Below, piece by piece: positions 1 to 25,438 of a stretch of 32,000 nucleotides of DNA. The stretch is from Cereibacter sphaeroides 2.4.1 (GTDB lineage: Bacteria > Pseudomonadota > Alphaproteobacteria > Rhodobacterales > Rhodobacteraceae): assembly GCF_000012905.2 (NCBI RefSeq), contig NC_007493.2:1110001-1142000 (forward strand). The letters are read 5' to 3'. The position numbers and the translations under genes are program-made. Under the pieces are notes generated by a model. It was not told the origin of the DNA, ran no database searches, and saw only the letters and a program-made list of their open reading frames with translations. Position 1 is the stretch's first letter; each line of letters starts with the position of its first letter.

Positions 1-160
1 GCTGCTGACCGAGATCGAGCTCTGGGAGGTCTCGCTCGTCACCTTCCCGATGCTGCCCGAGGCGCGGGTCGCCGCCAAGGGCGAGGACCGTGACGGGCTG
101 GACTGGCAGGACATCGCCGACCTCTTCGAGGACGCCCGGCGAAGCCTCTCCGGGGGCTGA
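1..160 (+). CDS. HK97-family prohead (maturation) protease, C-terminal fragment (RcGTA g4 equivalent). The 5' end lies outside the window.
   Basis: Reading frame 2 is open from the window edge to TGA at 158-160. It reads LLTEIELWEVSLVTFPMLPEARVAAKGEDRDGLDWQDIADLFEDARRSLSGG. The E-x-SLV-x-x-P motif is typical of HK97-type prohead protease C-termini. The fragment sits directly upstream of the capsid gene. Confidence 0.6.
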   Translation, partial: LLTEIELWEVSLVTFPMLPEARVAAKGEDRDGLDWQDIADLFEDARRSLSGG

Positions 161-225
161 ACAGGAGGCCGGACCGGGAAGCTCCGCGCCTGACCCGAAC
201 CACCGCAAGTCAGAGGAAGACGAGG

Positions 226-1422
226 ATGACCGAGACCTGGGCTCGGGCCGGGACAGGCATGTCCGCAGGCCCCGATCCGGCCGTGGAGGCGAAAGCCGCA
301 ATGGCCGGTTTCCTGAAGGAGATCAATCGCTTTCAGGAGGAGGTGAAGAATGTGCTGCAACAACAGGAAGAGCGTTTGACCATGCTGGACCGCAAAACCA
401 TGATCTACGGGCGCCCGGCGCTGGCGGCCGCGGCCGACCAGGAGGCGCCGCATCGCAAGGCGTTCGGGGCCTATCTCCGCTCGGGCGACGACGACGGTCT
501 GCGCGGCCTCGTCCTCGAGGGCAAGGCGATGACGGCGAGCGTCGCCTCGGACGGCGGCTATCTGGTCGATCCGCAGACCTCGGACGCCATCCGCTCGATG
601 TTGCTGTCCACGGCCTCGATCCGTCAGATCGCCGGTGTGGTCCATGTGGAAGCCACGAGCTTCGACGTGCTGATCGACCGCACTGAGGTGGGGTCGGGCT
701 GGGCCACGGAGGCCGCCACGATCAGCGAAAGCGCCTCGCCCACCATCGAGCGGATCTCGATCAAGCTGCACGAACTGTCGGCGATGCCGAAGGCGAGCCA
801 GCGGCTTCTGGACGACTCGGCCTTCGACGTCGAGAGCTGGCTGGCGGGCAAGATCGCGACGCGCTTCATGCGGGCCGAGAGCGCGGCCTTCGTCAGCGGC
901 GACGGGATCGACAAGCCGCGGGGCTTTCTGGCGCCGGCGAAGGTTGCGAACGCGAGCTGGAGCTGGGGCTCGATCGGCTATGTCCCCTCGGGTGCGGCGA
1001 GCGATTTCCTCGCCACGAACCCGGCCGATTGTATCATCACCCTGATCTATTCGCTCGGCGCCGATTACCGCGCGAATGCGACCTTCGTGATGAATTCGAA
1101 GACCGCGGGCGCGGTGCGGAAGATGAAGGACTCGGACGGCCGCTTCCTGTGGTCGGACGGGCTGGCGGCGGCGGAGCCTGCGCGGCTGATGGGATATCCG
1201 GTTCTGCTGTGCGAGGACATGCCGGACATTGCCGCGGGCGCCTTTGCCATCGCTTTCGGGGATTTCGCCGCCGGCTACACGATCGCCGAGCGGCCCGAGG
1301 TGCGGGTCCTGCGCGATCCGTTCTCGGCCAAGCCCCATGTCCTCTTCTATGCGACGAAGCGCGTGGGAGGCGATGTCAGCGACTATGCGGCGATCAAGCT
1401 CCTGAAGATCGCGGTGTCCTGA
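226..1422 (+). CDS. HK97-fold major capsid protein (RcGTA g5 equivalent)
   Basis: 398-aa ORF with GAGGAAGACGAGG just upstream of the ATG. The N-terminus is a coiled delta/scaffold-like segment (FLKEINRFQEEVKNVLQQQEERL). The body is capsid-like (GGYLVDPQTS..., KLHELSAMPKASQRLLDDS, ANATFVMN, LMGYPV). Its position after the protease matches GTA/HK97 order. Confidence 0.9.
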   Translation: MTETWARAGTGMSAGPDPAVEAKAAMAGFLKEINRFQEEVKNVLQQQEERLTMLDRKTMIYGRPALAAAADQEAPHRKAFGAYLRSGDDDGLRGLVLEGKAMTASVASDGGYLVDPQTSDAIRSMLLSTASIRQIAGVVHVEATSFDVLIDRTEVGSGWATEAATISESASPTIERISIKLHELSAMPKASQRLLDDSAFDVESWLAGKIATRFMRAESAAFVSGDGIDKPRGFLAPAKVANASWSWGSIGYVPSGAASDFLATNPADCIITLIYSLGADYRANATFVMNSKTAGAVRKMKDSDGRFLWSDGLAAAEPARLMGYPVLLCEDMPDIAAGAFAIAFGDFAAGYTIAERPEVRVLRDPFSAKPHVLFYATKRVGGDVSDYAAIKLLKIAVS

Positions 1423-1461
1423 GGGCCCCGCGGACGGCCGCCCTCGCACGGGGCGCAGCGG

Positions 1462-1489
1462 GCGCGCGCCGGCTTCGTCCGGCGCGCGC
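1462..1489 (+). promoter_or_regulatory. Perfect 11-bp GC-rich stem-loop in the g5-g6 intergenic gap. It may be an intra-operon attenuator or an mRNA-stabilising hairpin.
   Basis: GCGCGCGCCGG (1462-1472), loop CTTCGT, CCGGCGCGCGC (1479-1489). No U-tract follows. It lies in the only sizeable gap (95 nt) in an otherwise overlapping operon. Confidence 0.5.
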
Positions 1490-1516
1490 ATCCCTCGGGA
1501 GCTTTCGGAGGCATTC

Positions 1517-2116
1517 ATGATGTTGATCGAGCAGACGGCCGTGCCAGACAGCGCGCTGCCGATGGCCCGGTTCAGGGAGCATCTGCGGCTCGGGTCGGGC
1601 TTTACCGAAGAGGGGCTGCAGGAGGCGCTGCTCGCGGCGTTCCTCCGGGCGGCCATCACCACCATCGAGGGCCGGACGGGCAAGGTGCTGCTGTCGCGGC
1701 GCTATCTGCTGATGCTGGAGGAATGGCGGACAGACGAGGCGCAAGCGCTGCCGATCGCGCCGGTGGGCGAGATCCTGTCGGTGACGCTCGTCGATGCGGC
1801 GGGGCGGACTTTTCCCCTTGTGCCGACGCTCTGGCGGCTGGTGCGGGATCAGCATCGCCCGAAACTGGTGCCGCGCGGGTCGGTCCTGCCGGCGGCGCCG
1901 GAGGACGGGCGGATCGAGATCCTGTTCGAGGCGGGCTTCGGAGCCGACTGGTCCGTCGTGCCGGCCGATCTGGCGCAGGCCGTGATGCTGCTGGCGGCCG
2001 ACTATTACGAGAACCGCTATGAACCCGGCCTCGGGGCCGCCGGCCTGCCTCGGGCTGTCACGGGCCTTATTGAACGCTGGCGCACCGTCCGTGTGCTGGG
2101 TGGAGGGGCGGTCTGA
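1517..2116 (+). CDS. Head-tail connector/adaptor protein (RcGTA g6 equivalent)
   Basis: 199-aa ORF with GGAGG 5 nt upstream of the ATG. Its stop overlaps the next start (TGATG at 2114-2118). Its position and size match the gp6-like connector of GTA clusters. Confidence 0.8.
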   Translation: MMLIEQTAVPDSALPMARFREHLRLGSGFTEEGLQEALLAAFLRAAITTIEGRTGKVLLSRRYLLMLEEWRTDEAQALPIAPVGEILSVTLVDAAGRTFPLVPTLWRLVRDQHRPKLVPRGSVLPAAPEDGRIEILFEAGFGADWSVVPADLAQAVMLLAADYYENRYEPGLGAAGLPRAVTGLIERWRTVRVLGGGAV

Positions 2117-2451
2117 TGAGCGAGAGGCTGAACCGCCAGCTGGTCCTCGAGGCGCCCGTGGCAGGGGCGGACGGCGCCGGGGGATCGATCCTGTCCTGGA
2201 CGGCGCTCGGGATCGTCTGGGGGCGGATCGAGCCCGGCGCAGGACGTGAGACGCGAGGGATCGAAATCCCTCTCGGAACGGTGCCGCTGAGGATCACGGT
2301 GCGCGCAGCCCCCGCGGGCGCTGCCGCCCGGCCGCAGCCGGGTCAGCGCTTCCGCGAGGGCGCGCGTCTCTATCCGGTGCTGGCCGTGACCGAGAAGGAT
2401 GCGGACGGGCGATACCTCATGTGCTTTGCGCGCGAGGAGGTTCCGGCATGA
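2116..2451 (+). CDS. Head-tail adaptor / head closure protein (RcGTA g7 equivalent)
   Basis: 111-aa ORF coupled to its neighbours by TGATG and ATGA overlaps. Size and position are typical of SPP1 gp16-like head closure proteins. Confidence 0.8.
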   Translation: MSERLNRQLVLEAPVAGADGAGGSILSWTALGIVWGRIEPGAGRETRGIEIPLGTVPLRITVRAAPAGAAARPQPGQRFREGARLYPVLAVTEKDADGRYLMCFAREEVPA

Positions 2452-2846
2452 GCTATGCGGGAGCGGTCGCGCTTCAGGCGGCCCTGTATGAGCATCTTTC
2501 GGGCCAGCCCGCGCTGGCGGGCGTGCCGATCCACGACGCGGTTCCCCGCGGCGGCGGGCGCGGAACCTGGATCCTGATCGGTCCCGAGGAGGTCCGCGAT
2601 GCCTCGGACGGCAGCGGCCGCGGCGCCCGGCATGACTTTACCGTCAGCGTGATGTCCGATGCGGCAGGGTTTCTCGCAGCGAAGCGCGTGGCCCTGGCCC
2701 TGTCCGACGCGCTGGTGACCGCGCCGCCCGCGCTCGAACGGGGTCGGCTGGTGCGGCTCGATTTCCTGAAGGCGGTGGCCCGACGGCTCGGCTCGGGAGA
2801 CGCGCGGCGCATCGACCTGACCTTCCGGGCCCGGATCGAGGAATGA
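2448..2846 (+). CDS. Tail terminator/completion protein (RcGTA g8 equivalent, DUF3168-like)
   Basis: The start was chosen at the ATG at 2448 (MSYAGAVALQAALYEHL...), which forms an ATGA overlap with the g7 stop. 132 aa. The assignment rests on position between the head closure and major tail genes. Confidence 0.7.
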   Translation: MSYAGAVALQAALYEHLSGQPALAGVPIHDAVPRGGGRGTWILIGPEEVRDASDGSGRGARHDFTVSVMSDAAGFLAAKRVALALSDALVTAPPALERGRLVRLDFLKAVARRLGSGDARRIDLTFRARIEE

Positions 2847-2883
2847 GGCCGGCCCGAGGCCGGGATTGGCGAGGAGTGATCGC

Positions 2884-3297
2884 ATGAGCGTGCAGAATGG
2901 CAGGGATCTTCTGGTGAAGGTGGATCTGACGGGCAGCGGCGGGTTCGAGACGATGGCGGGCCTCCGGGCCACGCGCATCGGCTTCAATGCCGAGACGGTC
3001 GATGTGACGTCGCTGGAGAGTCAGGGCGGCTGGCGCGAGCTGCTGGCGGGGGCCGGGGTGAAATCGGCTTCCATCTCGGGCTCGGGCGTGTTTCGCGACG
3101 CGGCGACGGACGAGCGGGCGCGGGCGCTCTTCTTCGCCGGAGAGGCGCCCCGCTTTCAGGTGGTGATCCCGAGTTTCGGCACGGTCGAGGGCCCCTTCGT
3201 GATCTCGGCGATCGAATATGCGGGGACCCACGATGGCGAGGCCACCTACGAAATGACGCTCGCCTCGGCGGGCAAGCTCACCTTCACGGCGCACTGA
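2884..3297 (+). CDS. Major tail protein (RcGTA g9 equivalent, TP901-1-like)
   Basis: The start was chosen at the ATG at 2884 (MSVQNGRDLLVKVD...), with GAGGAG 7 nt upstream. 137 aa. The sequence is tail-tube-like (FETMAGLRATRIGFNAETVDVTS ... ATYEMTLASAGKLTF). Confidence 0.85.
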   Translation: MSVQNGRDLLVKVDLTGSGGFETMAGLRATRIGFNAETVDVTSLESQGGWRELLAGAGVKSASISGSGVFRDAATDERARALFFAGEAPRFQVVIPSFGTVEGPFVISAIEYAGTHDGEATYEMTLASAGKLTFTAH

Positions 3298-3613
3298 TGG
3301 CCAATCCCTGGACGGGCGAAGTGGCGATCTGGCTCGACGGCCGGTGCCACACGGGCAAGCTCACGCTCGGCGCGCTGGCGGAGCTGGAGGCGGACCTCGG
3401 CGCGGACAGTCTGATCGCGCTGGTGGAGCGGTTCGAGGAGCGGCGCTTCTCGACACGCGACGTGATCGCCGTTCTCGTGGCGGGGCTCCGGGGCGGCGGC
3501 TGGCAGGGCACGGCCGAGGAGCTCGGCCGGGCGGAGGTGGGCGGGGGGCGGCGGGAGCGGCGCGCGCTGCGGCGGAACTTCTGGTGCGTGCCTTCGCACT
3601 GCCGGAGGGGTGA
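3297..3613 (+). CDS. Tail assembly chaperone-like protein (RcGTA g10 equivalent). As written it needs a -1 frame change at a G6 run (3543-3548) to reach its plausible C-terminus.
   Basis: The N-terminal part (MANPWTGEVAIWLDGRCHTGKLTLGALAELEADLG...AEVGGG) is in the frame of 3297. The protein-like C-terminus AAGAARAAAELLVRAFALPEG-stop (TGA 3611-3613) is in the -1 frame. The unshifted frame instead gives an Arg-rich junk-like linker fused to g10.1. Confidence 0.6.
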
Positions 3614-3614
3614 G

Positions 3615-3815
3615 ATGGGCCGGCTCGACTGGCCCGCCCTCCTGCGGCTGGGGCTCGAGGGGTTGCGGCTGTCGCCAGAGGCGTTCTGGCGGCTCACGCC
3701 TGCCGAACTGAGGATCATGCTGGGCGCGTCCGCCGTGGCGCCCCTGTCGCGCGCGCGCCTCGACGAGTTGCTGCGCGCCTTTCCGGATGTCGAGAAGGAA
3801 GAGGGTCATGGCTGA
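3615..3815 (+). CDS. Small GTA tail-assembly protein (RcGTA g10.1 equivalent)
   Basis: The ATG at 3615 lies one base after the -1-frame stop of g10. The 66-aa product is MGRLDWPALLRLGLEGLRLSPEAFWRLTPAELRIMLG.... It sits between the chaperone and the tape measure. Confidence 0.65.
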   Translation: MGRLDWPALLRLGLEGLRLSPEAFWRLTPAELRIMLGASAVAPLSRARLDELLRAFPDVEKEEGHG

Positions 3816-4458
3816 CATCGAGTCTCTGGAAGAGCAGGTGGCGGCGCTCGAGAGCACGCTCGGCAGTGCGGCCGGGATGACGGCGAGCTTCGAGAGCGAA
3901 CTGGCGCGGATGCGGGACGCAATGGTCTTCACCAGCCGCGAGGTGGATCGTTTGTCGAGCGGCATGGGGACGGGCCTCAGGCGCGCCTTCGACGGGGTGC
4001 TGTTCGACGGCATGAAGCTCTCGGACGCGATGCAGGGTCTCGCGCAGTCGATTTCGCGCACCGTCTATTCGGTCGCGATGAAGCCGGTGCAGGATGCGGT
4101 GTCGGGCTTTCTGGCCGATGGGCTGAACTCGATCCTCGGCGGGCTGATGCCCTTCGCGAAGGGGGGCGCGTTCTCGCAGGGGAGGGTCATGCCCTTCGCG
4201 CGCGGCGGTGTGGTGGCAGGGGCGACCCCCTTTCCCATGCGCGGGGCCACCGGGCTCATGGGCGAGGCGGGCCCCGAAGCGATCCTGCCGCTCGCCCGCG
4301 GGGCAGACGGTCGGCTCGGCGTGCAGGCGGGCGGCGGCCGCGCGGTGCAGGTGGTTATGAACGTGGCCACGCCCGATGTGCAGGGCTTCGAGCGCAGCCG
4401 GGGCCAGATCGCCGCGCAGGTGAGCCGGATGCTCGCGCGCGGCCAGCGCAACGGGTAG
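3808..4458 (+). CDS. Short tail tape measure protein (RcGTA g11 equivalent)
   Basis: The start was chosen at the ATG at 3808 (MADIESLEEQVAALESTLG...) after GAAGGAAGAGGG. 216 aa, with a coiled N-terminus and a Gly-rich C-terminus (MPFAKGGAFSQGRVMPFARGGVV...GLMGEAGPEAILPL) typical of tape measure proteins. Confidence 0.8.
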   Translation: MADIESLEEQVAALESTLGSAAGMTASFESELARMRDAMVFTSREVDRLSSGMGTGLRRAFDGVLFDGMKLSDAMQGLAQSISRTVYSVAMKPVQDAVSGFLADGLNSILGGLMPFAKGGAFSQGRVMPFARGGVVAGATPFPMRGATGLMGEAGPEAILPLARGADGRLGVQAGGGRAVQVVMNVATPDVQGFERSRGQIAAQVSRMLARGQRNG

Positions 4459-4467
4459 GGGGGCGCC

Positions 4468-5100
4468 ATGGGCTTTCACGAGGTCCGGTTTCCGACTAAC
4501 CTCAGCTTCGGCTCGATCGGAGGGCCGGAGCGTCGGACCGAGATCGTCACGCTGGTCAATGGCTTCGAGGAACGCAACAGCCTCTGGGCCCATTCGCGCC
4601 GCCGCTACGACGCGGGCGTGGCGCTGCGCTCGCTCGACGATATCCAGGCGCTCCTGGCCTTCTTCGAGGCGCGCCGTGGCCAGCTTTACGGTTTTCGCTG
4701 GAAGGACTGGGCCGACTATCGCTCGTGCCCGGCCACCGCCTCTCCGGGGCCCAAGGATCAGCCTCTCGGCATCGGCGACGGGATCAGCCGGGAGTTCGCG
4801 CTGGTCAAGACCTATCGCTCGGGAAGCGAGCAGTATGTGCGGCCGGTGGCGAAACCCGTTGCAGGCTCGGTGAAGGTGGCGGTGGCAGGCGCGGTGCTGG
4901 TAGAAGGCGCGGGCTTCTCGGTCGACGAGACCAGGGGGCTCGTCACGCTCGCCGCGGCCCCTGCCGAAGGCGCCGCGGTCACGGCGGGGTTCGAGTTCGA
5001 CGTGCCGGTGCGGTTCGATACCGACCGGATCCAGATCTCGATGGCCTCCTTCCAGGCAGGCGAGGTTCCGAGCGTTCCGGTGATGGAGGTGCGGGTCTGA
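4468..5100 (+). CDS. Distal tail protein (RcGTA g12 equivalent, DUF2460/TIGR02217-like)
   Basis: 210-aa ORF beginning MGFHEVRFPTNLSFGSIGGPERRTEIVTLVNGFEERN, with FRWKDWADY, which I recognise as the GTA g12 family. Its stop overlaps the g13 start. Confidence 0.85.
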   Translation: MGFHEVRFPTNLSFGSIGGPERRTEIVTLVNGFEERNSLWAHSRRRYDAGVALRSLDDIQALLAFFEARRGQLYGFRWKDWADYRSCPATASPGPKDQPLGIGDGISREFALVKTYRSGSEQYVRPVAKPVAGSVKVAVAGAVLVEGAGFSVDETRGLVTLAAAPAEGAAVTAGFEFDVPVRFDTDRIQISMASFQAGEVPSVPVMEVRV

Positions 5101-5984
5101 TGGGCGCGGCAGAGCTTCATGCGCATCTGAAGGGCGGCGCTGCCACCGTCTGCCGGTGCTGGGCCGTGACACGGCGGGACGGGACGGTGTTCGGCTTCAC
5201 CGATCACGACCGGGATCTGACGTTCGAGGGGCGGCTGTTCCGGGCAGAGACGGGGCTCACCTCGTCGGCGTTGCAGCAGACGACGGGCCTGTCGGTGGAC
5301 AATGCCGAGACCGTCGGGGCGCTCTCGCATGTGTCGGTGACGGAGGCAGATCTGCTCGCAGGCCGGTTCGACGGCGCGGAGGTGCTGGCATGGCTCGTGA
5401 ACTGGGCCGATGTCAGTGAGAGGCTGCTGCAGTTCCGCGGAACGCTGGGCGAGATCACCCATTCCGGGGGACGGTTCCGGGCAGAGTTGCGTGGCCTGAC
5501 CGAGGCGCTGAACCAGCCGCAGGGGCGGGTCTATCAGCGGTCTTGTCAGGCGGTTCTGGGCGACCGGGCCTGCGGTTTCGACCTGAGCGCCGAAGAATTT
5601 GCCACCGAACGGGCTGTCGAAACCGTCGTCGGGCGGCAGAGCTTCAGTTTCGAGGGTCTGCACTCTTTCCCGGATCGCTGGTTCGAGCAGGGGCGGCTTG
5701 TGGTGATGACCGGTGAGGCGGCAGGAGCGATGGGCGTGATCAAGTCCGACCGGCGCCGGGGAGAGGTGCGAACAGTGGAGCTGTGGGAGGCGCTCGGTCC
5801 GCAGATCACCGTGGGCGACCGTGTCCGTCTTGAGGCGGGCTGCGACCGGATGGCCGAGACCTGTCGCCTGAAGTTCAACAATCTCAGAAACTTCCGGGGC
5901 TTTCCTCATCTTTCGGGAGAAGACTGGCTCAGTGCCTATCCCGCGGCGACGGGGACGCATGACGGTGGGAGCCTGTGGCGATGA
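5100..5984 (+). CDS. Baseplate hub protein (RcGTA g13 equivalent, DUF2163 plus BR0599-like C-terminal domain)
   Basis: The start was chosen at the ATG at 5100 (TGATG overlap with g12): MGAAELHAHLKGGAATVCRCWAVTRRDGTVFGFTDHDRDLTFEG.... 294 aa. The upstream part of the 419-aa track ORF is an off-frame extension. Confidence 0.85.
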   Translation: MGAAELHAHLKGGAATVCRCWAVTRRDGTVFGFTDHDRDLTFEGRLFRAETGLTSSALQQTTGLSVDNAETVGALSHVSVTEADLLAGRFDGAEVLAWLVNWADVSERLLQFRGTLGEITHSGGRFRAELRGLTEALNQPQGRVYQRSCQAVLGDRACGFDLSAEEFATERAVETVVGRQSFSFEGLHSFPDRWFEQGRLVVMTGEAAGAMGVIKSDRRRGEVRTVELWEALGPQITVGDRVRLEAGCDRMAETCRLKFNNLRNFRGFPHLSGEDWLSAYPAATGTHDGGSLWR

Positions 5985-6421
5985 ACGGGGCCGATGTGGT
6001 GGCCGAGGCACGGTCCTGGCTGGGCACGCCCTACGTCCACCAGGCTTCGGCCAGGGGGGCCGGCGCGGACTGTCTCGGCCTTCTCAGGGGCATCTGGCGG
6101 TCGTTGATCGGCCCGGAGCCGCTGAAAGTGCCTGCCTATACGCCGGACTGGTCGGAGCCGTCTGGCCATGAAGAGCTGATGGCGGCCTGCGACCGGTGCC
6201 TTGTCCGCAAGCCGCTTGAGGCTGCGGCGGAGGGAGACGTCCTGCTCTTCCGCATGCGGCCGGGCGCGGTCGCCAAACATCTCGGCATTCTGGTTCGTCC
6301 GGGCCCGAATGCCTCGTTCATCCACGCCTATGGCGGCCATGGCACCGTCGAAAGCCCGCTCTCCGAGCCCTGGGCCGAGCGGATCGCGGCCCGTTATGCA
6401 TTTCCGGAAAGGACGGACTGA
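5981..6421 (+). CDS. NlpC/P60-family cell-wall peptidase (RcGTA g14 equivalent)
   Basis: The ATG at 5981 forms an ATGA overlap with the g13 stop; an alternative GTG lies at 5975. The sequence WLGTPYVHQASARGAGADCLGLLRGIW contains the catalytic Cys context of NlpC/P60 enzymes, and a His lies downstream (KHLGIL). Confidence 0.85.
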   Translation: MNGADVVAEARSWLGTPYVHQASARGAGADCLGLLRGIWRSLIGPEPLKVPAYTPDWSEPSGHEELMAACDRCLVRKPLEAAAEGDVLLFRMRPGAVAKHLGILVRPGPNASFIHAYGGHGTVESPLSEPWAERIAARYAFPERTD

Positions 6422-9400
6422 TGGCGACGCTTCTGCTGGCCGCGGCCGGATCGGCGATCGGAGCAGGCTTCAGCGGCACGGTGCTCGGGCTGACAGGGGC
6501 GGTCATCGGGCGCGCGATCGGGGCGACGGTCGGCCAGCTGATCGACCAGCGGCTGATGGGCGCCGGATCGCAGACGGTCCGCACCGGGCGGATCGAACGT
6601 TTCCGTCTGATGGGCGCCGGCGAGGGCGCCCCCGTGGCCCAGCTGTTCGGTCGCAATCGGGTGGCAGGACAGGTGATCTGGGCCTCGCGCTTCCTCGAGA
6701 GCCAGTCCGAGAGCACGGGCGGCGGAAAGGGCGGCGGCCCGAGATCGACCGTCGTGAGCTATTCCTATTCCGTCAACCTCGCCGTCGCGCTGTGCGAGGG
6801 AGAGATTCTGCGCGTGGGCCGCATCTGGGCCGATGGTGCCGAGATCGCGACGGGGTCGCTCAACCTTCGGCTCTATCGCGGGACGGAGGGTCAGCTGCCG
6901 GATCCCAAGATCGAGGCAGTGGAGGGGGCGGGCATGGCGCCGGCCTACCGCGGGATCGCTTATGTGGTGATCGAGGATCTCGACCTCGCCCGGTTCGGCA
7001 ACCGGGTGCCGCAATTCTCGTTCGAGGTGATGCGGGCAGCGCAGGGGGCTCTGGCGGATCGGGTGATGACGCTTCAGCGCGCGGTGAAGGGCGTGGCACT
7101 GATCCCGGGCACGGGAGAATACGCTCTGGCCACGAGCCGTCTCGCCTACAGGCCCGATCCGGGAGAGACCGAGGTCGCCAACGTGCACACGGCGTCGGGG
7201 GAAAGCGACATGCGCAGCTCGCTTGCACAACTGAGGGGCGAGCTCCCGGCCTGCCGGTCGGTGTCGCTGGTCGTGTCCTGGTTCGGGAGCGACCTGCGCT
7301 GCGGCGCCTGCGAGATCCGCCCCAAGGTCGAGGGCCATCTCGACGCAGCGACCATGGCCTGGCGGTCGGGTGGGATCGACCGCGCGCAGGCCGAGCGGGT
7401 GGCGCGGATCGACGACCGTCCGGTCTATGGGGGAACGCCTGCGGATGCGGCGGTGGTCGAGGCGATCCATGCCCTGAAGGCGCAGAACCTCTCGGTGCTC
7501 TACTATCCGTTCATCCTCATGGAACAGCTTCCCGGTAATGATCTGCCGGACCCCTGGTCAGGTGCTGCGGGCCAGCCGGTGCTGCCCTGGCGCGGGAGGA
7601 TCACGCTCTCGACAGCGCCGGGTCAGCCGGGGACGCCTGACAGAACGGGAGCCGCCGAGGATGAGGTGCGCGCCTTCTTCGGGGATGCGGAGCCTCGCCA
7701 GTTCCGCATCGAGGACGGGCGCGTGCTCTATGACGGCGCCGACGAATGGCGCTACCGGCGCTTCATTCTCCACGCGGCCTGGCTCTGCCGGCTGGCCGGC
7801 GGGGTGGAGGCCTTCTGCGTGGGCTCCGAGTTGCGCGGGCTGACGGCGATCCGGGGGGCGGACGACAGCTTCCCGGCGGTGGCCGAACTGCGGAGGCTCG
7901 CGGCCGACGTCCGCGGCATCCTCGGGCCCGAGGTGAAGATCGGTTACGCCGCCGACTGGAGCGAATGGTCCAGCCTCCATGCCGATGGCAATCTCTACTT
8001 CCATCTCGATCCGCTCTGGTCGGATCCGAACATCGATTTCATCGGCATCGACAATTACATGCCGCTCTCGGACTGGCGCGAGGCCGAGACTCATGCGGAC
8101 GCGCGGTGGCCCTCGGTGCAGGATCTGGGCTACCTCAAGTCGAACATCGCCGGAGGCGAGGGTTTCGCGTGGTATTATCCCGACGAGGCCGCGGCGGCGG
8201 CTCAGGACCGGCGGCCGATCACGGATGCGGATTTCGGAGAGCCTTGGGTGCATCGCCCCAAGGACCTCCGATCCTGGTGGTCGCTGCCCCATCACGAGCG
8301 CATCGACGGCGTGCGGTTGGCGCAGCCGACCGGCTGGGTCCCGCGCTCGAAGCCGATCTGGTTCACCGAATATGGGTGTCCGGCGCTCGACCTCGGGAGC
8401 AATCAGCCGAACCTGTTCATCGATCCCAAAAGCTCGGAATCCGCGCTGCCGCGGGGCTCGTCCGGACGACGCGACGACGGGATCGCGATGAATTACCTGC
8501 GCGCGATGGCCGAATACTGGCAGGACGAGGCCAACAATCCGGTGTCGGACCTCTATGGTGGCTCCATGGTCGACATGGACCGCGCCCATGCCTGGGCCTG
8601 GGACGCCCGTCCATTTCCGGCCTTTCCCGCGCTCGGCGATGTCTGGTCCGACGGTTCGAACTATGCGCGCGGTCATTGGCTGAACGGTCGCGCGGCCTCG
8701 CAACCGCTGTCCGCCGTGGTGGCCGAGATCTGCGAACGGTCCGGGGTAACCGCCATCGACGTCACGCAATTGCAGGGCGTGGTGCGCGGCTATGGGATTT
8801 CCGAGGTCGTCAGTGCCCGGGCGGCCTTGCAGCCGCTGATGCTGGCCTATGGCTTCGAGGCGCTGGAACGCGATGGCAAGCTGATCTTCCGCATGCGCGA
8901 CGGGCGCGCGAAGGCCGAGGTCTCGCGCGAGGACCTGGTGGCATCGGACGATCTCGAGGGCGCGCTCGAGCGCGTGCGCGCGGCGGAGGTCGAGACCGCA
9001 GGCCGGGTTCGGCTGCATTTCCTCGAGGCGGAAGGCGACTATGAGGCACGGCAGGTCGAGGCGGCCTTCCCGGACGAAGCGACCTTTGCCGTCTCGCAAT
9101 CCGAAGTGCCGCTCGTGCTCACCTCGGGTGAGGCGCGGGGCGCCGTCGAGCGGTGGCTGGCCGAGGCCCGCGTGGCGCGCGACAGCCTGCGTCTGGCCCT
9201 GCCGCGGTCGGCTCTGGCCTTCGGTGCCGGCGACGTTCTGGAGATTGAAGGCCGGCGCTATCGCATCGACCGCCTCGATCAGGCCGAATGCCAGCTGGCG
9301 GAGGCGGTTCGTGTGGAACCCGGCATCTACCGCCCCGCCGATATGGCCGAAGAGCAGGTGCGCGCGCGTCGCATTGCGGCTTCCGGTCCGGTCCGGCCGA

Positions 9401-10311
9401 TCTTTCTCGATCTGCCCCTGCTCACGGGAACGGAGCTGCCCCATTCCCCCCACTTCGGTGTGGCAGCAACGCCCTGGCCGGGGCAGGTTGCGGTCTGGAG
9501 CGCGACGCAGGATGCGGGCTATCGCCTGAACCGGCTTCTGGGCGTGGCTGCGACGGCGGGCGTCACCGAGACGATCCTGCGGGCTGCACCGATGGGGCGA
9601 TGGGACATGGGCGCGCCGCTCCGGGTGCGGCTGCTGGGGCCGCCGCTCGCCGCGGCTTCGGATCTCGAGGTGCTGAACGGAGCCAACCTCATGGCCATCG
9701 GCGACGGCCGACCCGACGGGTGGGAGCTCTTCCAGTTCGCGGACGCGCGGCTGGTTTCGCCGCGGGTCTGGGAGCTTTCGCGCAGGCTCCGGGGGCAGGC
9801 GGGAACGGATGGGCAGATGCCCGAGATCTGGCCCGAGGGCAGCACGGTCGTTCTCGTCAACGGCGCCCTGACGCAGCTTCAGATGCCGCTCGCCGACCGG
9901 GGGCTCGCCCGGCATTATCGGATCGGCGCCGCCGCCCGCGGCTACGACGACCCGGACACAGTCCACCGGGTTCAGGCTTTCGCAGGGGTCGGGCTCCGGC
10001 CCTATTCGCCGGTCCATCTGGCGGTGGAGCGGGACGGGGAGCACATCCTGCTGCGCTGGATCCGTCGCACCCGCATCGACGGCGACAGCTGGGAGGGGCG
10101 CGAGGTGCCGCTGGGAGAGGAGAGCGAGCTTTATCTGGTCCGCGTCGTGGCGTGGGGAGAGGTACGCCGGCAGGAGGAGGTGAGGGAGCCCCGCTGGACA
10201 TACACCGGGGCCGCGCAGGCGGCGGATGGTGTGGGAAGCGCCTTCGTCCTCGAAGTCGCCCAGGTATCGGAGAGCTTCGGGCCCGGGCCGTTCCGGCGCA
10301 TCGCGCTCTGA
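6421..10311 (+). CDS. Large host-specificity / tail baseplate protein (RcGTA g15 equivalent)
   Basis: 1296-aa ORF whose start overlaps the g14 stop (TGATG). It has a Gly/Ala-rich hydrophobic N-terminus and conserved-looking blocks (YSYSVNLAVALCEG, RIWADG, YRGIAYVVIEDLDL, FGNRVPQFSFEV). It is the last and largest gene of GTA clusters. Confidence 0.9.
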   Translation: MATLLLAAAGSAIGAGFSGTVLGLTGAVIGRAIGATVGQLIDQRLMGAGSQTVRTGRIERFRLMGAGEGAPVAQLFGRNRVAGQVIWASRFLESQSESTGGGKGGGPRSTVVSYSYSVNLAVALCEGEILRVGRIWADGAEIATGSLNLRLYRGTEGQLPDPKIEAVEGAGMAPAYRGIAYVVIEDLDLARFGNRVPQFSFEVMRAAQGALADRVMTLQRAVKGVALIPGTGEYALATSRLAYRPDPGETEVANVHTASGESDMRSSLAQLRGELPACRSVSLVVSWFGSDLRCGACEIRPKVEGHLDAATMAWRSGGIDRAQAERVARIDDRPVYGGTPADAAVVEAIHALKAQNLSVLYYPFILMEQLPGNDLPDPWSGAAGQPVLPWRGRITLSTAPGQPGTPDRTGAAEDEVRAFFGDAEPRQFRIEDGRVLYDGADEWRYRRFILHAAWLCRLAGGVEAFCVGSELRGLTAIRGADDSFPAVAELRRLAADVRGILGPEVKIGYAADWSEWSSLHADGNLYFHLDPLWSDPNIDFIGIDNYMPLSDWREAETHADARWPSVQDLGYLKSNIAGGEGFAWYYPDEAAAAAQDRRPITDADFGEPWVHRPKDLRSWWSLPHHERIDGVRLAQPTGWVPRSKPIWFTEYGCPALDLGSNQPNLFIDPKSSESALPRGSSGRRDDGIAMNYLRAMAEYWQDEANNPVSDLYGGSMVDMDRAHAWAWDARPFPAFPALGDVWSDGSNYARGHWLNGRAASQPLSAVVAEICERSGVTAIDVTQLQGVVRGYGISEVVSARAALQPLMLAYGFEALERDGKLIFRMRDGRAKAEVSREDLVASDDLEGALERVRAAEVETAGRVRLHFLEAEGDYEARQVEAAFPDEATFAVSQSEVPLVLTSGEARGAVERWLAEARVARDSLRLALPRSALAFGAGDVLEIEGRRYRIDRLDQAECQLAEAVRVEPGIYRPADMAEEQVRARRIAASGPVRPIFLDLPLLTGTELPHSPHFGVAATPWPGQVAVWSATQDAGYRLNRLLGVAATAGVTETILRAAPMGRWDMGAPLRVRLLGPPLAAASDLEVLNGANLMAIGDGRPDGWELFQFADARLVSPRVWELSRRLRGQAGTDGQMPEIWPEGSTVVLVNGALTQLQMPLADRGLARHYRIGAAARGYDDPDTVHRVQAFAGVGLRPYSPVHLAVERDGEHILLRWIRRTRIDGDSWEGREVPLGEESELYLVRVVAWGEVRRQEEVREPRWTYTGAAQAADGVGSAFVLEVAQVSESFGPGPFRRIAL

Positions 10312-22349: not shown

Positions 22350-22772
22350 TCAGGCGCGGGGGATGTCGAACCCTTCCGGCGCCAGCTCGAAGCCCTCGAA
22401 GCGGAAGCCGGGGCTGACGGTGCAGCCGACGAGGCTCCAGTCGCCTGTCGAGCGCGCGGCCTGCCAGTGGTGGGGCGGCACGATCCCCTGCGGGCTCTCG
22501 CCCGCGAGCACGTCCGGCCCGAGCCGGATCTCGCGCGCCGGTCCCGCGCCGTCGGCGGCCACCGACAGGATGAGCGGTGCGCCGGCATGGAAGTGCCAGA
22601 TCTCGGTCGCATCGATCCGGTGCCAGTGCGACCGCTCGCCGGCCTTCAGGAGGAACAGGATCGCCGTCCCGGGCGGGCGCCCCTCGGCCGGGGCCCGCCA
22701 GGTCTCGCGATACCAGCCGCCTTCCGGGTGACGGGCGAGCCCGAGGCGGGCGATGATCCGGTCTGCATCCAT
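22350..22772 (-). CDS. Cupin-fold protein of the DUF985 family
   Basis: 140 aa. [17 protein letters not shown] ... [17 protein letters not shown] ... [15 protein letters not shown] matches the DUF985 cupin pattern. Confidence 0.8.
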
Positions 22773-22994
22773 GCTCTCTCTCCGACGCGCCGTTGCGGCG
22801 CCAGTCTGGCGCAGGGGCCGCGGGCTGCAAGCCCGCTCTGCGCCGGATTGCGCGCTTCGGTTGAGGGGCCTTGAGGGAGGAGGTTGTATTCTCCTCCACC
22901 CCCCTCGTCAAAGCGGCCCAACCCGTTGTCAGATATGGCCCTTCGGCCAAATTCGATCCGGCCGGAGACCCATCCGACACAGGGGAGACGAGAT

Positions 22995-23171
22995 TTGGAC
23001 AAGGCAATCACCACCGCCGACTGCGCCTACGAGGCGCCGGTCCTGCGCGTTCACGGCACACTCGAGGAAATGACCCACGGCCGCGGCCATGGCGGCTTCG
23101 GCGGGGGCTGGGGCTGGGGCGGCGGCCGTCCGCACCGCCCGCACGATCCCTGCGACTACACCTTCTCCTGA
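22995..23171 (+). CDS. Small standalone ORF (58 codons): a RiPP-precursor-like peptide with a lasso-type leader motif and a Gly/Trp/His-rich C-terminal region
   Basis: The in-frame TTG at 22995 is preceded by AGGGGAG with a 7-nt spacer. Alternative ATG starts lie at 22936 and 22884 without a Shine-Dalgarno sequence. Translation: (M)DKAITTADCAYEAPVLRVHGTLEEMTH-GRGHGGFGGGWGWGGGRPHRPHDPCDYTFS. GC3 is about 88% in this frame. A 13-bp terminator hairpin follows 20 nt after the stop. The leader fits YxxPxLxxxGxxxxxTx exactly. Confidence 0.55.
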   Translation: MDKAITTADCAYEAPVLRVHGTLEEMTHGRGHGGFGGGWGWGGGRPHRPHDPCDYTFS

Positions 23172-23190
23172 TCGCCCGCGCGGCAGGCAA

Positions 23191-23220
23191 AAGGCCCGGA
23201 CGCATGCGCGTCCGGGCCTT
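23191..23220. terminator. Bidirectional terminator hairpin between the small ORF and eno
   Basis: AAGGCCCGGACGC, loop ATGC, GCGTCCGGGCCTT (perfect 13-bp stem), lying between convergent stops at 23171 and 23242. Confidence 0.7.
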
Positions 23221-23241
23221 CGCATGTCCGGGGCCCGGGCC

Positions 23242-25438
<2,197 letters not shown>

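Follow-up and report, generated by a model that had tools for sequence, protein, structure and literature searches.

The 32,000-nt stretch of Cereibacter sphaeroides 2.4.1 analysed here (NC_007493.2, positions 1,110,001 to 1,142,000; referred to as the window) contains, between a cupin gene and the enolase gene eno, the small gene RSP_6057. This gene, called the orphan below, is a diverged paralogue of RSP_2554, the precursor gene of a lasso peptide operon on the same chromosome. RSP_6057 is conserved across species, co-occurs with an intact set of lasso enzymes, and encodes a peptide with a lasso-type leader and no acceptor residue for ring closure. Two features that define lasso precursors are missing: core positions 7-9 offer no acceptor, and the B and C genes are not adjacent. 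With a probability of roughly 0.5, we read RSP_6057 as a trans-encoded second substrate of the lasso cluster, which would be bound by B1, phosphorylated at its C-terminal Ser, cleaved and exported without being cyclised, as we infer for each of these processing steps.

The existence of RSP_6057 is not new, since the gene is already annotated by its leader in RefSeq as “lasso RiPP family leader peptide-containing protein” (RiPP, ribosomally synthesised and post-translationally modified peptide). We did not find its relationship to RSP_2554 described, nor the acceptor loss conserved under selection, nor the recurrence of such cores elsewhere.

Gene, leader and core of RSP_6057

The following features of the gene are given in window coordinates; RRE denotes a RiPP recognition element.

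22981-22987, + strand: Shine-Dalgarno sequence AGGGGAG, read from the sequence, with a 7-nt spacer to the start codon
22995-23171, + strand: RSP_6057, 58 codons plus TGA, TTG start; diverged paralogue of the lasso precursor
22995-23078, + strand: leader, residues 1-28, with Y-17/P-14/L-12/G-8/T-2; predicted B1 (RRE) binding site; predicted B2 cleavage after His28
23079-23126, + strand: variable Gly/Arg/His/Phe/Trp tract, core residues 1-16, in place of the canonical ring and loop and without Asp/Glu at 7-9
23100-23120: in-frame tandem repeat of the unit GGCTGG, 3.5 copies (GW units)
23126-23144: in-frame RPH-coding repeat of the unit CCGCCCGCA, 2.1 copies
23127-23168, + strand: conserved C-terminal block RPHRPHDPCDYTFS, whose end D-Y-T-F-S-COOH is homologous to GDLTFS-COOH of the lasso family; Ser58 is the predicted phosphorylation site

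A self-contained small gene with this Shine-Dalgarno sequence and TTG start had been proposed in an earlier note made from the sequence alone, and the open reading frame (ORF) at 22995-23171 encodes exactly the product quoted there, MDKAITTADCAYEAPVLRVHGTLEEMTH followed by GRGHGGFGGGWGWGGGRPHRPHDPCDYTFS, with the predicted leader/core boundary between the two parts. Two values of that note needed slight correction: the GC content at third codon positions is 0.864 instead of about 88%, and the gap between the cupin gene (22350-22772, - strand) and eno (23242-24519, - strand) spans 22773-23241, i.e., 469 instead of 470 bp. In the public collection, the identical protein is found as RSP_6057 of strain 2.4.1 and as Rsph17029_1158, and both GenBank entries are over-long with 78 aa. 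The 78-aa version (start MALRPNS...) adds positions 22935-22994, for which the upstream frame shows no conservation and contains a stop in C. azotoformans. The in-frame stop of the C. azotoformans orthologue, located 5 codons upstream, supports the TTG at 22995, which is the conserved start. The GGAGAC core of the Shine-Dalgarno sequence is kept in the orthologues of the C. azotoformans type and of Rhodobacter sp. NSM, as seen in a three-species DNA alignment.

Counted from Gly29 as +1, the leader carries Tyr-17, Pro-14, Leu-12, Gly-8 and Thr-2, so that the motif YxxPxLx3Gx5Tx can be read directly. The NCBIfam model NF033521 (lasso_leader_L3) matches the peptide with 19.8 bits (curated cut-off 19, E 5.8e-4), and the assignment of a lasso-type leader therefore holds. 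NF033534 ‘rhodolasso’ (20.4 bits, cut-off 30) and NF033528 ‘lasso_cyano’ (19.4 bits, cut-off 33) remained below their cut-offs and matched the leader region only, and no Pfam family matched the peptide. The small residue at core position 1, Gly29, follows Thr27-His28 in RSP_6057, as it does in all orthologues. Within the 30-residue core, D23 and D26 are the only acidic residues, as had been stated before. An N-terminal metal site of the ATCUN type was considered and dropped, because the His sits at core position 4 and is not conserved.

Conservation and selection

The enolase of the window is identical in many C. sphaeroides assemblies (e.g., WS8N CM001161 and CP033434/CP033446), in which the 58-aa gene is called at the same position. 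Orthologues in the same synteny, anmK-(cupin)-peptide-eno-EamA-Fur-nrdJ, were observed in C. johrii, in genomes of the C. azotoformans/ATCC 17025 type (CP031750, KA25) and in Rhodobacter sp. NSM; a further lineage with an orthologue is given by Rhodobacter sp. CZR27 (P0183). The orphan is thus known from four lineages, namely sphaeroides/johrii, the C. azotoformans type, NSM and CZR27. A tblastn search of plasmids with the RSP_6057 peptide gave no match.

In the three-species alignment, the ORF is far more conserved than both of its flanks, the substitutions in the leader fall on third positions, and every indel is a multiple of 3. Nei-Gojobori dN/dS (the ratio of non-synonymous to synonymous substitution rates) is 0.05-0.22 for all pairs, with dS >1 between lineages; the nearly identical strains L001 and L005 are uninformative on selection within their lineage. 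The 2-6 nucleotide differences that separate C. sphaeroides strains from the window are exclusively synonymous. RSP_6057 is thereby confirmed as a real small gene under purifying selection, and the reading frame holds in the relatives, where the earlier note had suggested looking. The third option of that note, a decayed remnant, is contradicted by this selection and by the synteny conserved across species; since the ORF is conserved in frame and with low dN/dS across species, we reject it.

Two segments, GTLEEMTH of the leader and D-P-x-D-Y-T-F-S at the end, are invariant in all orphan lineages, while the leaders of the cognate cluster precursors of the same species vary more (LEAMTH, LEMMTH, LEAMTQ and LEDMTQ). 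Core positions 7-9 read FGG in sphaeroides and johrii, PGH in the C. azotoformans type, GPG in NSM and HGH in CZR27. Consequently, Asp or Glu as macrolactam acceptor is lacking at these positions in all four lineages, and the prediction that a canonical Gly1-Asp/Glu7-9 macrolactam is impossible extends from the single sequence to the whole orthologous group. The Cys of the core is not invariant and is replaced by Gly in NSM. The two tandem repeats explain the length differences between the species: C. johrii has an additional GW, and an RPH is missing from the C. azotoformans type.

A complete lasso operon on the same chromosome

No lasso enzyme is encoded in the 32-kb window, in agreement with the earlier note, whose designation of the gene as an orphan is correct within these 32 kb. 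The designation does not extend to the chromosome, on which a full lasso operon with a canonical precursor paralogue lies approximately 55-58 genes away. A metagenome scan with the peptide led to contig L014, on which a precursor whose leader reads ...HGTLEEMTHA is encoded together with B2, a cyclase, an HprK-like kinase and an ABC exporter. With the cyclase of this contig as query, a Paracoccus plasmid cluster of the order A-PqqD-B2-cyclase-serine kinase-ABC was obtained, whose precursor is MVKTYSRPVLRVQGQLEAMTH (leader) followed by GNSRGSALDNTFQAGTPVSQLTFS (core). The Paracoccus cyclase as query in turn yielded the cyclases of C. sphaeroides, C. changlensis, Rhodobacter sp. CZR27 and Rhodobacter sp. 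NSM. The precursor ORF of contig L014 (region 2424-3624) ends in ...DGSRDLRLR, not in Ser, and overlaps the called kinase start by approximately 77 nt; this overlap may be due to a frameshift or a mis-called start.

In C. sphaeroides, the locus (L018, 1-21881) has the gene order NTP_transf_5 (divergent), 50-aa precursor gene RSP_2554, PqqD, B2, cyclase, kinase and ABC exporter, with the following products:

PqqD (B1), 88 aa: resembles lasso chaperones and the solved lasso RRE TbiB1 (E 2.8e-6)
B2 protease, Transglut_core3, 157 aa: above the NF033537 cut-off
Cyclase, Asn-synthase-like, 626 aa: best model is the lasso isopeptide cyclase
HprK-like kinase, Hpr_kinase_C, 306 aa, L018 11878-12798: Pfam match, partial TIGR00679 and TIGR04352 matches, PDB HPr kinase matches
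ABC exporter, 618 aa

The catalytic motif H...GxGKST...DD of the kinase is intact (H116, G134-x-G-K-S-T139 and D154-D155). For C. sphaeroides S3W10 and SS15, one antiSMASH region of the type ‘lassopeptide, RRE-containing’ has been reported (PMC11676352, Table S7).

Orphan and cluster are located on the same replicon, as the protein accession offsets of five genome records show:

2.4.1: orphan ABA78654, cluster precursor ABA78712, cyclase ABA78715
ATCC 17029: orphan ABN76268, cluster precursor ABN76323, cyclase ABN76326
KD131: orphan ACM00670, cluster precursor ACM00727, cyclase ACM00730
Further record: orphan/cluster pair AXC60868/AXC60926
Further record: orphan/cluster pair AZB55708/AZB55653

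In case of NSM, both are situated on one contig, 187 kb apart, and CZR27 likewise contains cluster and orphan. The cluster is carried by johrii as well as by sphaeroides, NSM and CZR27.

The lasso operon of C. sphaeroides is located inside Wzy/Wzz-type exopolysaccharide genes. Among the loci examined (L016 and L018-L023), the A-PqqD-B2-cyclase-kinase genes are mostly followed by an ABC exporter gene and accompanied by an NTP_transf_5 gene. An embedding in a Wzy/Wzz/GT2/GH16 exopolysaccharide locus was observed in Cereibacter and on the Paracoccus plasmid, and glycosyltransferase neighbours occur in an unrelated metagenome-assembled genome (MAG). This linkage of lasso and exopolysaccharide genes is conserved.

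RSP_6057 as a paralogue of RSP_2554

The cluster precursor RSP_2554, (M)ANNIQTLAYEAPVLRVHGTLEAMTH with the core GATDGWALDASFPVDTPKGDLTFS, has a canonical core with Gly1, Asp9 and a tail ending in Ser. In the 19-residue leader block AYEAPVLRVHGTLE(A/E)MTHG, orphan and RSP_2554 are identical at 18/19 positions, and the corresponding codons show 10 synonymous and 1 non-synonymous differences. Ten synonymous differences at this degree of identity indicate old copies with both leaders under selection, not a recent copy. Judged from the sequences, this constraint is the pattern to be expected if both precursors must fit the same recognition proteins. The C-terminal ends likewise correspond, with GDLTFS* in the cognate, CDYTFS* in the orphan and GDYTFS* in the NSM orphan. 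A complete operon on the chromosome, the nearly identical leader of its precursor and the shared TFS-COOH end lend strong circumstantial support to the proposal, one of three made in the earlier note, that the peptide is processed in trans by a distant cluster. The proposal of a different RRE-dependent chemistry is compatible with these findings as well, as genes for an HprK-like peptide kinase and a nucleotidyltransferase are part of the cluster.

A profile search revealed approximately 80 relatives in Paracoccus, Roseobacter, Sphingomonas, Zymomonas and metagenomes (P0150-P0252). Their core is uniform with 24 residues, GxSxGxxLD9AxFPxGTPxxDLTFS-COOH, and nearly all members have D9. Within this family, Asp or Glu at positions 7-9 is missing only in the Cereibacter eno-locus peptides and in two distant, low-scoring matches (P0243 and P0248). 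No paper with the ‘DLTFS’ family motif was found in the literature, and this very conserved lasso precursor family is apparently uncharacterised. The precursors of the RSP_2554 type, which belong to A-B1-B2-C-K-D clusters of Rhodobacterales and Sphingomonadales, resemble the orphan in the leader and in the D-x-T-F-S-COOH end. In contrast to them, the orphan lacks Asp at core positions 7-9, carries a Gly/Arg/His/Trp tract instead of ring and loop, and is situated at the cupin/eno locus and not beside B1. The NSM orphan core comprises 23 residues compared to the 24 of the RSP_2554 type.

The cluster precursor of NSM (L019 9025-9194) shows a 1-nt deletion in the His-9 codon, resulting in a frameshift, and a Tyr-17 to Cys exchange; this is a genuine pseudogene unless the assembly contains an error. 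In NSM, the eno-locus peptide is intact, as are the five genes for the enzymes and the exporter. A damaged cognate next to an intact orphan and intact enzymes would fit the orphan being a genuine substrate.

Comparison with characterised systems

Lasso precursors are phosphorylated by HprK-like kinases before leader removal, and the H/GxGKS/DD catalytic motif has been described for these kinases (PMC6993621, PMC10368454 and, for the motif, PMC10368454). The target was the C-terminal Ser in all previously characterised cases, whereas BsfK acts on Ser3 (PMC10368454). The B1 RRE speeds up the kinase, the nucleotidyltransferase PsmN attaches a hexose to the phosphate, and B2 cleaves after the residue following Thr-2 (PMC6993621, PMC10368454). 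The paeninodin and pseudomycoidin systems (PadeA, PsmA; PadeK, PsmK; PsmN) share with the Cereibacter system the lasso leader, split B1/B2 proteins, an HprK-like kinase with the same motif and an NTP-transferase gene. PadeA and PsmA end in Ser as RSP_6057 does, and in PadeA and PsmA this Ser is phosphorylated before the leader is removed (PMC6993621, PMC10368454). Unlike RSP_6057, however, they have a ring acceptor, become lassos, occur in Firmicutes and are encoded inside their clusters.

A precedent for precursors encoded away from their enzymes is given by the prochlorosin ProcA peptides, for which one ProcM serves conserved leaders with very different cores. Every ProcA core still receives the modification that defines its class, whereas RSP_6057 cannot form the class-defining ring.

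Acceptor-less peptides elsewhere

Three more acceptor-less peptides were revealed when the orphan profile was used for an exhaustive HMMER search:

P0254, L025 8001-8189, in QJPK01000033: ...YDAPALRIHGTLEDLNH followed by GLGSGKGFPGKGHACGHDKKHQELTFS; orphan; Asn instead of Thr at -2
P0255, L024 702-875: ...YEAPALRVQGSLEEATH followed by GLTNPGLGLGHCIGKGLGHVKGKGQGHLKFDDCTFS; on a 1-kb contig
P0257, L026 830-973: ...YAAPELVVHGTVEELTH followed by GKAGGKKKGGGKPKAPRS; Gly/Lys-rich; on a soil contig

All three combine a lasso leader with a Gly/His/Lys-rich core without ring acceptor and a C-terminal Ser. The neighbours of P0254 are RadC, an AraC-type regulator, an RTX/Hint protein and Opp genes. P0257 directly follows PqqD and B2 genes, and the N-terminus of the next ORF aligns with lasso-cluster kinases (hhalign probability 77.5%, E 1.9e-5). 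The combination of a lasso-type leader with a Gly/basic/His-rich core that ends in Ser and cannot be cyclised hence recurs, in at least one case inside a PqqD-B2 cluster with a kinase-like next ORF. A Patescibacteria match to RPHDPCDY (L006) was discarded, as it lies antisense to an M23-peptidase gene and is due to chance.

It is tempting to speculate that RSP_6057, P0254, P0255 and P0257 represent an unrecognised RiPP subclass, in which a lasso-type leader would deliver a non-cyclisable Gly/His/basic-rich core to a B1/B2/kinase module with or without a nucleotidyltransferase. The product would be linear and C-terminally phospho(glyco)sylated, and its tract may bind metal. We put this forward tentatively and regard it as possible, though less likely than not.

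Proposed fate of the peptide and alternative explanations

In the reading that we favour, an old duplication of RSP_2554, the precursor gene of the A-B1(PqqD)-B2-C-K-D plus NTP_transf_5 operon, would have given rise to RSP_6057. Two parts would have been retained under strong selection, the leader for the PqqD-type RRE and B2 and the D-x-T-F-S-COOH end as kinase site, and the ring and loop segment would have been replaced by a slippage-prone Gly/Arg/His/Trp tract without Asp acceptor. RSP_6057 would be expressed from a promoter of its own at the eno locus, and B1 would capture the peptide. Ser58, the conserved C-terminal residue and the likely site of modification, would then be phosphorylated prior to leader removal, and the nucleotidyltransferase might add a sugar in a further step. 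A B2 cut after Thr27-His28 would release a 30-mer in which the cyclase, without an acceptor, would leave the ring unclosed. The cluster ABC exporter would finally export a linear, weakly cationic, His/Gly-rich 30-mer, with predicted monoisotopic masses of 3166.39 Da and, if phosphorylated, 3246.35 Da. The product is thus probably a linear modified peptide.

Several observations weigh against this scenario. RSP_6057 and RSP_2553-2558 do not occur in the searchable literature, which offers no expression, proteomic or mass-spectrometry support. The kinases of this Rhodobacterales clade are uncharacterised, and the one tested kinase of a different clade hits Ser3 (PMC10368454). The orphan is present in the C. 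azotoformans/ATCC 17025-type lineage, yet no cyclase of this lineage was found among the named cyclase matches or on plasmids; if the lineage truly has no cluster, the peptide must work there without one. Conversely, C. changlensis has the cluster, and no orphan was detected there. Furthermore, the upstream regions of orphan and cluster show no similarity (score 17 versus a shuffle mean of 17.3). P0065, which was met in the search for a cluster of the C. azotoformans/ATCC 17025 lineage, originates from a MAG.

Independence from the lasso enzymes altogether, with RSP_6057 acting as a small intracellular or secreted His/Gly-rich peptide, e.g., in metal binding, and with a repurposed ‘leader’, appears unlikely, although the C. 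azotoformans-type lineage, with its orphan and no cyclase detected, would be accounted for. P0254 is likewise an orphan, with Asn for Thr at -2, and the cores of the orthologues, P0254 and P0255 are His/Gly-rich with 2-4 His and usually one Cys. However, the best conserved parts of the peptide are exactly the lasso recognition residues and the kinase-site end of the family, and the cluster is present in sphaeroides, johrii, NSM and CZR27 alike. In addition, the Cys to Gly exchange in NSM and His positions that are out of register between the lineages speak against the putative metal binding. The very strong constraint on the leader, together with the missing ring acceptor in every lineage, would also be expected of a decoy or regulator, whose intact leader binds B1, B2 or the kinase and which, being uncyclisable, titrates the enzymes or serves as a readout of their activity, thereby adjusting how much of the true lasso peptide is made. 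This role would also suit a gene that has a separate promoter at a housekeeping locus and an upstream region dissimilar to the cluster promoter. Since a decoy needs the leader alone, the conservation of 13-14 C-terminal residues including TFS-COOH is left over, and the state of NSM, with a cognate that looks damaged and an intact orphan and enzymes, is a poor fit for a pure regulator of the cognate; we hold such a function to be rather improbable.

An even less probable route to a lasso would be a second cut in the Gly tract, exposing a Gly 7-9 residues before Asp51 (e.g., GRPHRPHD), after which the cyclase would form a 15-residue lasso. Every lineage has a Gly 6-8 residues upstream of the conserved Asp, and the pseudomycoidin cyclase requires neither leader nor B proteins (PMC6993621). 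In a tract this rich in Gly, however, a residue of this kind is to be expected, and the Gly-to-Asp register shifts between lineages (sphaeroides and NSM, 8; C. azotoformans type, 7 or 9; CZR27, 7), so the alternative core with a G1-D8 ring that the earlier note had offered is not conserved in register. The second cut would moreover lack Thr-2 and a known protease, and it would leave a tail of just 7 residues. The missing acceptor, the low complexity, the proneness to slippage and the location away from the cluster might finally point to a duplicated precursor gene that has lost its function and is decaying. This explanation is largely refuted and very hard to maintain in view of dN/dS values of 0.05-0.22, of frame, start codon, Shine-Dalgarno sequence and both termini being kept at dS >1, and of strain differences in sphaeroides (2-6 nt) that are all synonymous.

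Lasso pathways are defined by ring closure, and a selected ring-less paralogue suggests that RRE, protease, kinase and exporter have a second, non-lasso substrate. If this holds true, a broader range of products would have to be accepted from ‘lasso’ clusters in genome mining, for which tools like RODEO are built around the canonical ring-forming core. As C. sphaeroides 2.4.1 is a genetically tractable model, the trans-substrate reading is directly testable. Attention is also drawn to a lasso family with operons embedded in exopolysaccharide loci across Rhodobacterales.

Flanking signals and gene neighbourhood

The intergenic region contains the following candidate signals:

22861-22889, + strand: candidate promoter box 1, TTGAGG-N17-TTGTAT, conserved columns in the three-species alignment
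22926-22954, + strand: candidate promoter box 2, TTGTCA-N17-AAATTC, conserved columns in the three-species alignment
23191-23220, no strand assigned: hairpin between the convergent peptide gene and eno, perfect 13-bp stem, 4-nt loop, -39.6 kcal/mol, z -4.0

Across sphaeroides, the C. azotoformans type and NSM, the boxes follow the consensus TTGA(A/G)G-N16/17-TTGTA(T/A) and TTG(A/T)CA-N17-AA(A/G)(T/C)(T/A)(C/T), respectively, and judging from this conservation they may be promoters. The sigma-70 scan upstream of RSP_6057 called no promoter. Box 1 loosely resembles RpoH-type TTG...-10 promoters, and RSP_6057 is not listed in the RpoH regulon tables of the published supplements. Rfam gave nothing credible in the intergenic region.

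The hairpin is kept, with changes, at the orthologous loci. Its stem is indeed perfect over 13 bp, as the earlier note had described for a terminator of the peptide gene, but the U-run lies on the eno strand, and the hairpin is therefore chiefly an eno terminator or a bidirectional one. The terminator scan did not call the hairpin, as its T-run rule is not satisfied on the + strand.

Apart from RSP_6057, the window contains a phage-type cluster related to gene transfer agents (GTA), cysE, pyruvate dehydrogenase genes, ftsB, an aldolase gene, pgk, two peptidyl-prolyl isomerase genes, tyrS, anmK, cupin, eno, EamA, a Fur-family gene, nrdJ and nadC. The structural GTA cluster is RcGTA-like and occupies window positions 1-10311 on the + strand, followed downstream by cysE:

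226-1422, + strand: HK97-type capsid
3297-3815, + strand: GTA-gp10/TAC (tail chaperone)
4468-5100, + strand: DUF2460
4725-5984, + strand: baseplate hub
6421-10311, + strand: GTA TIM-barrel/host-specificity protein, 1296 aa
10721-11527: cysE

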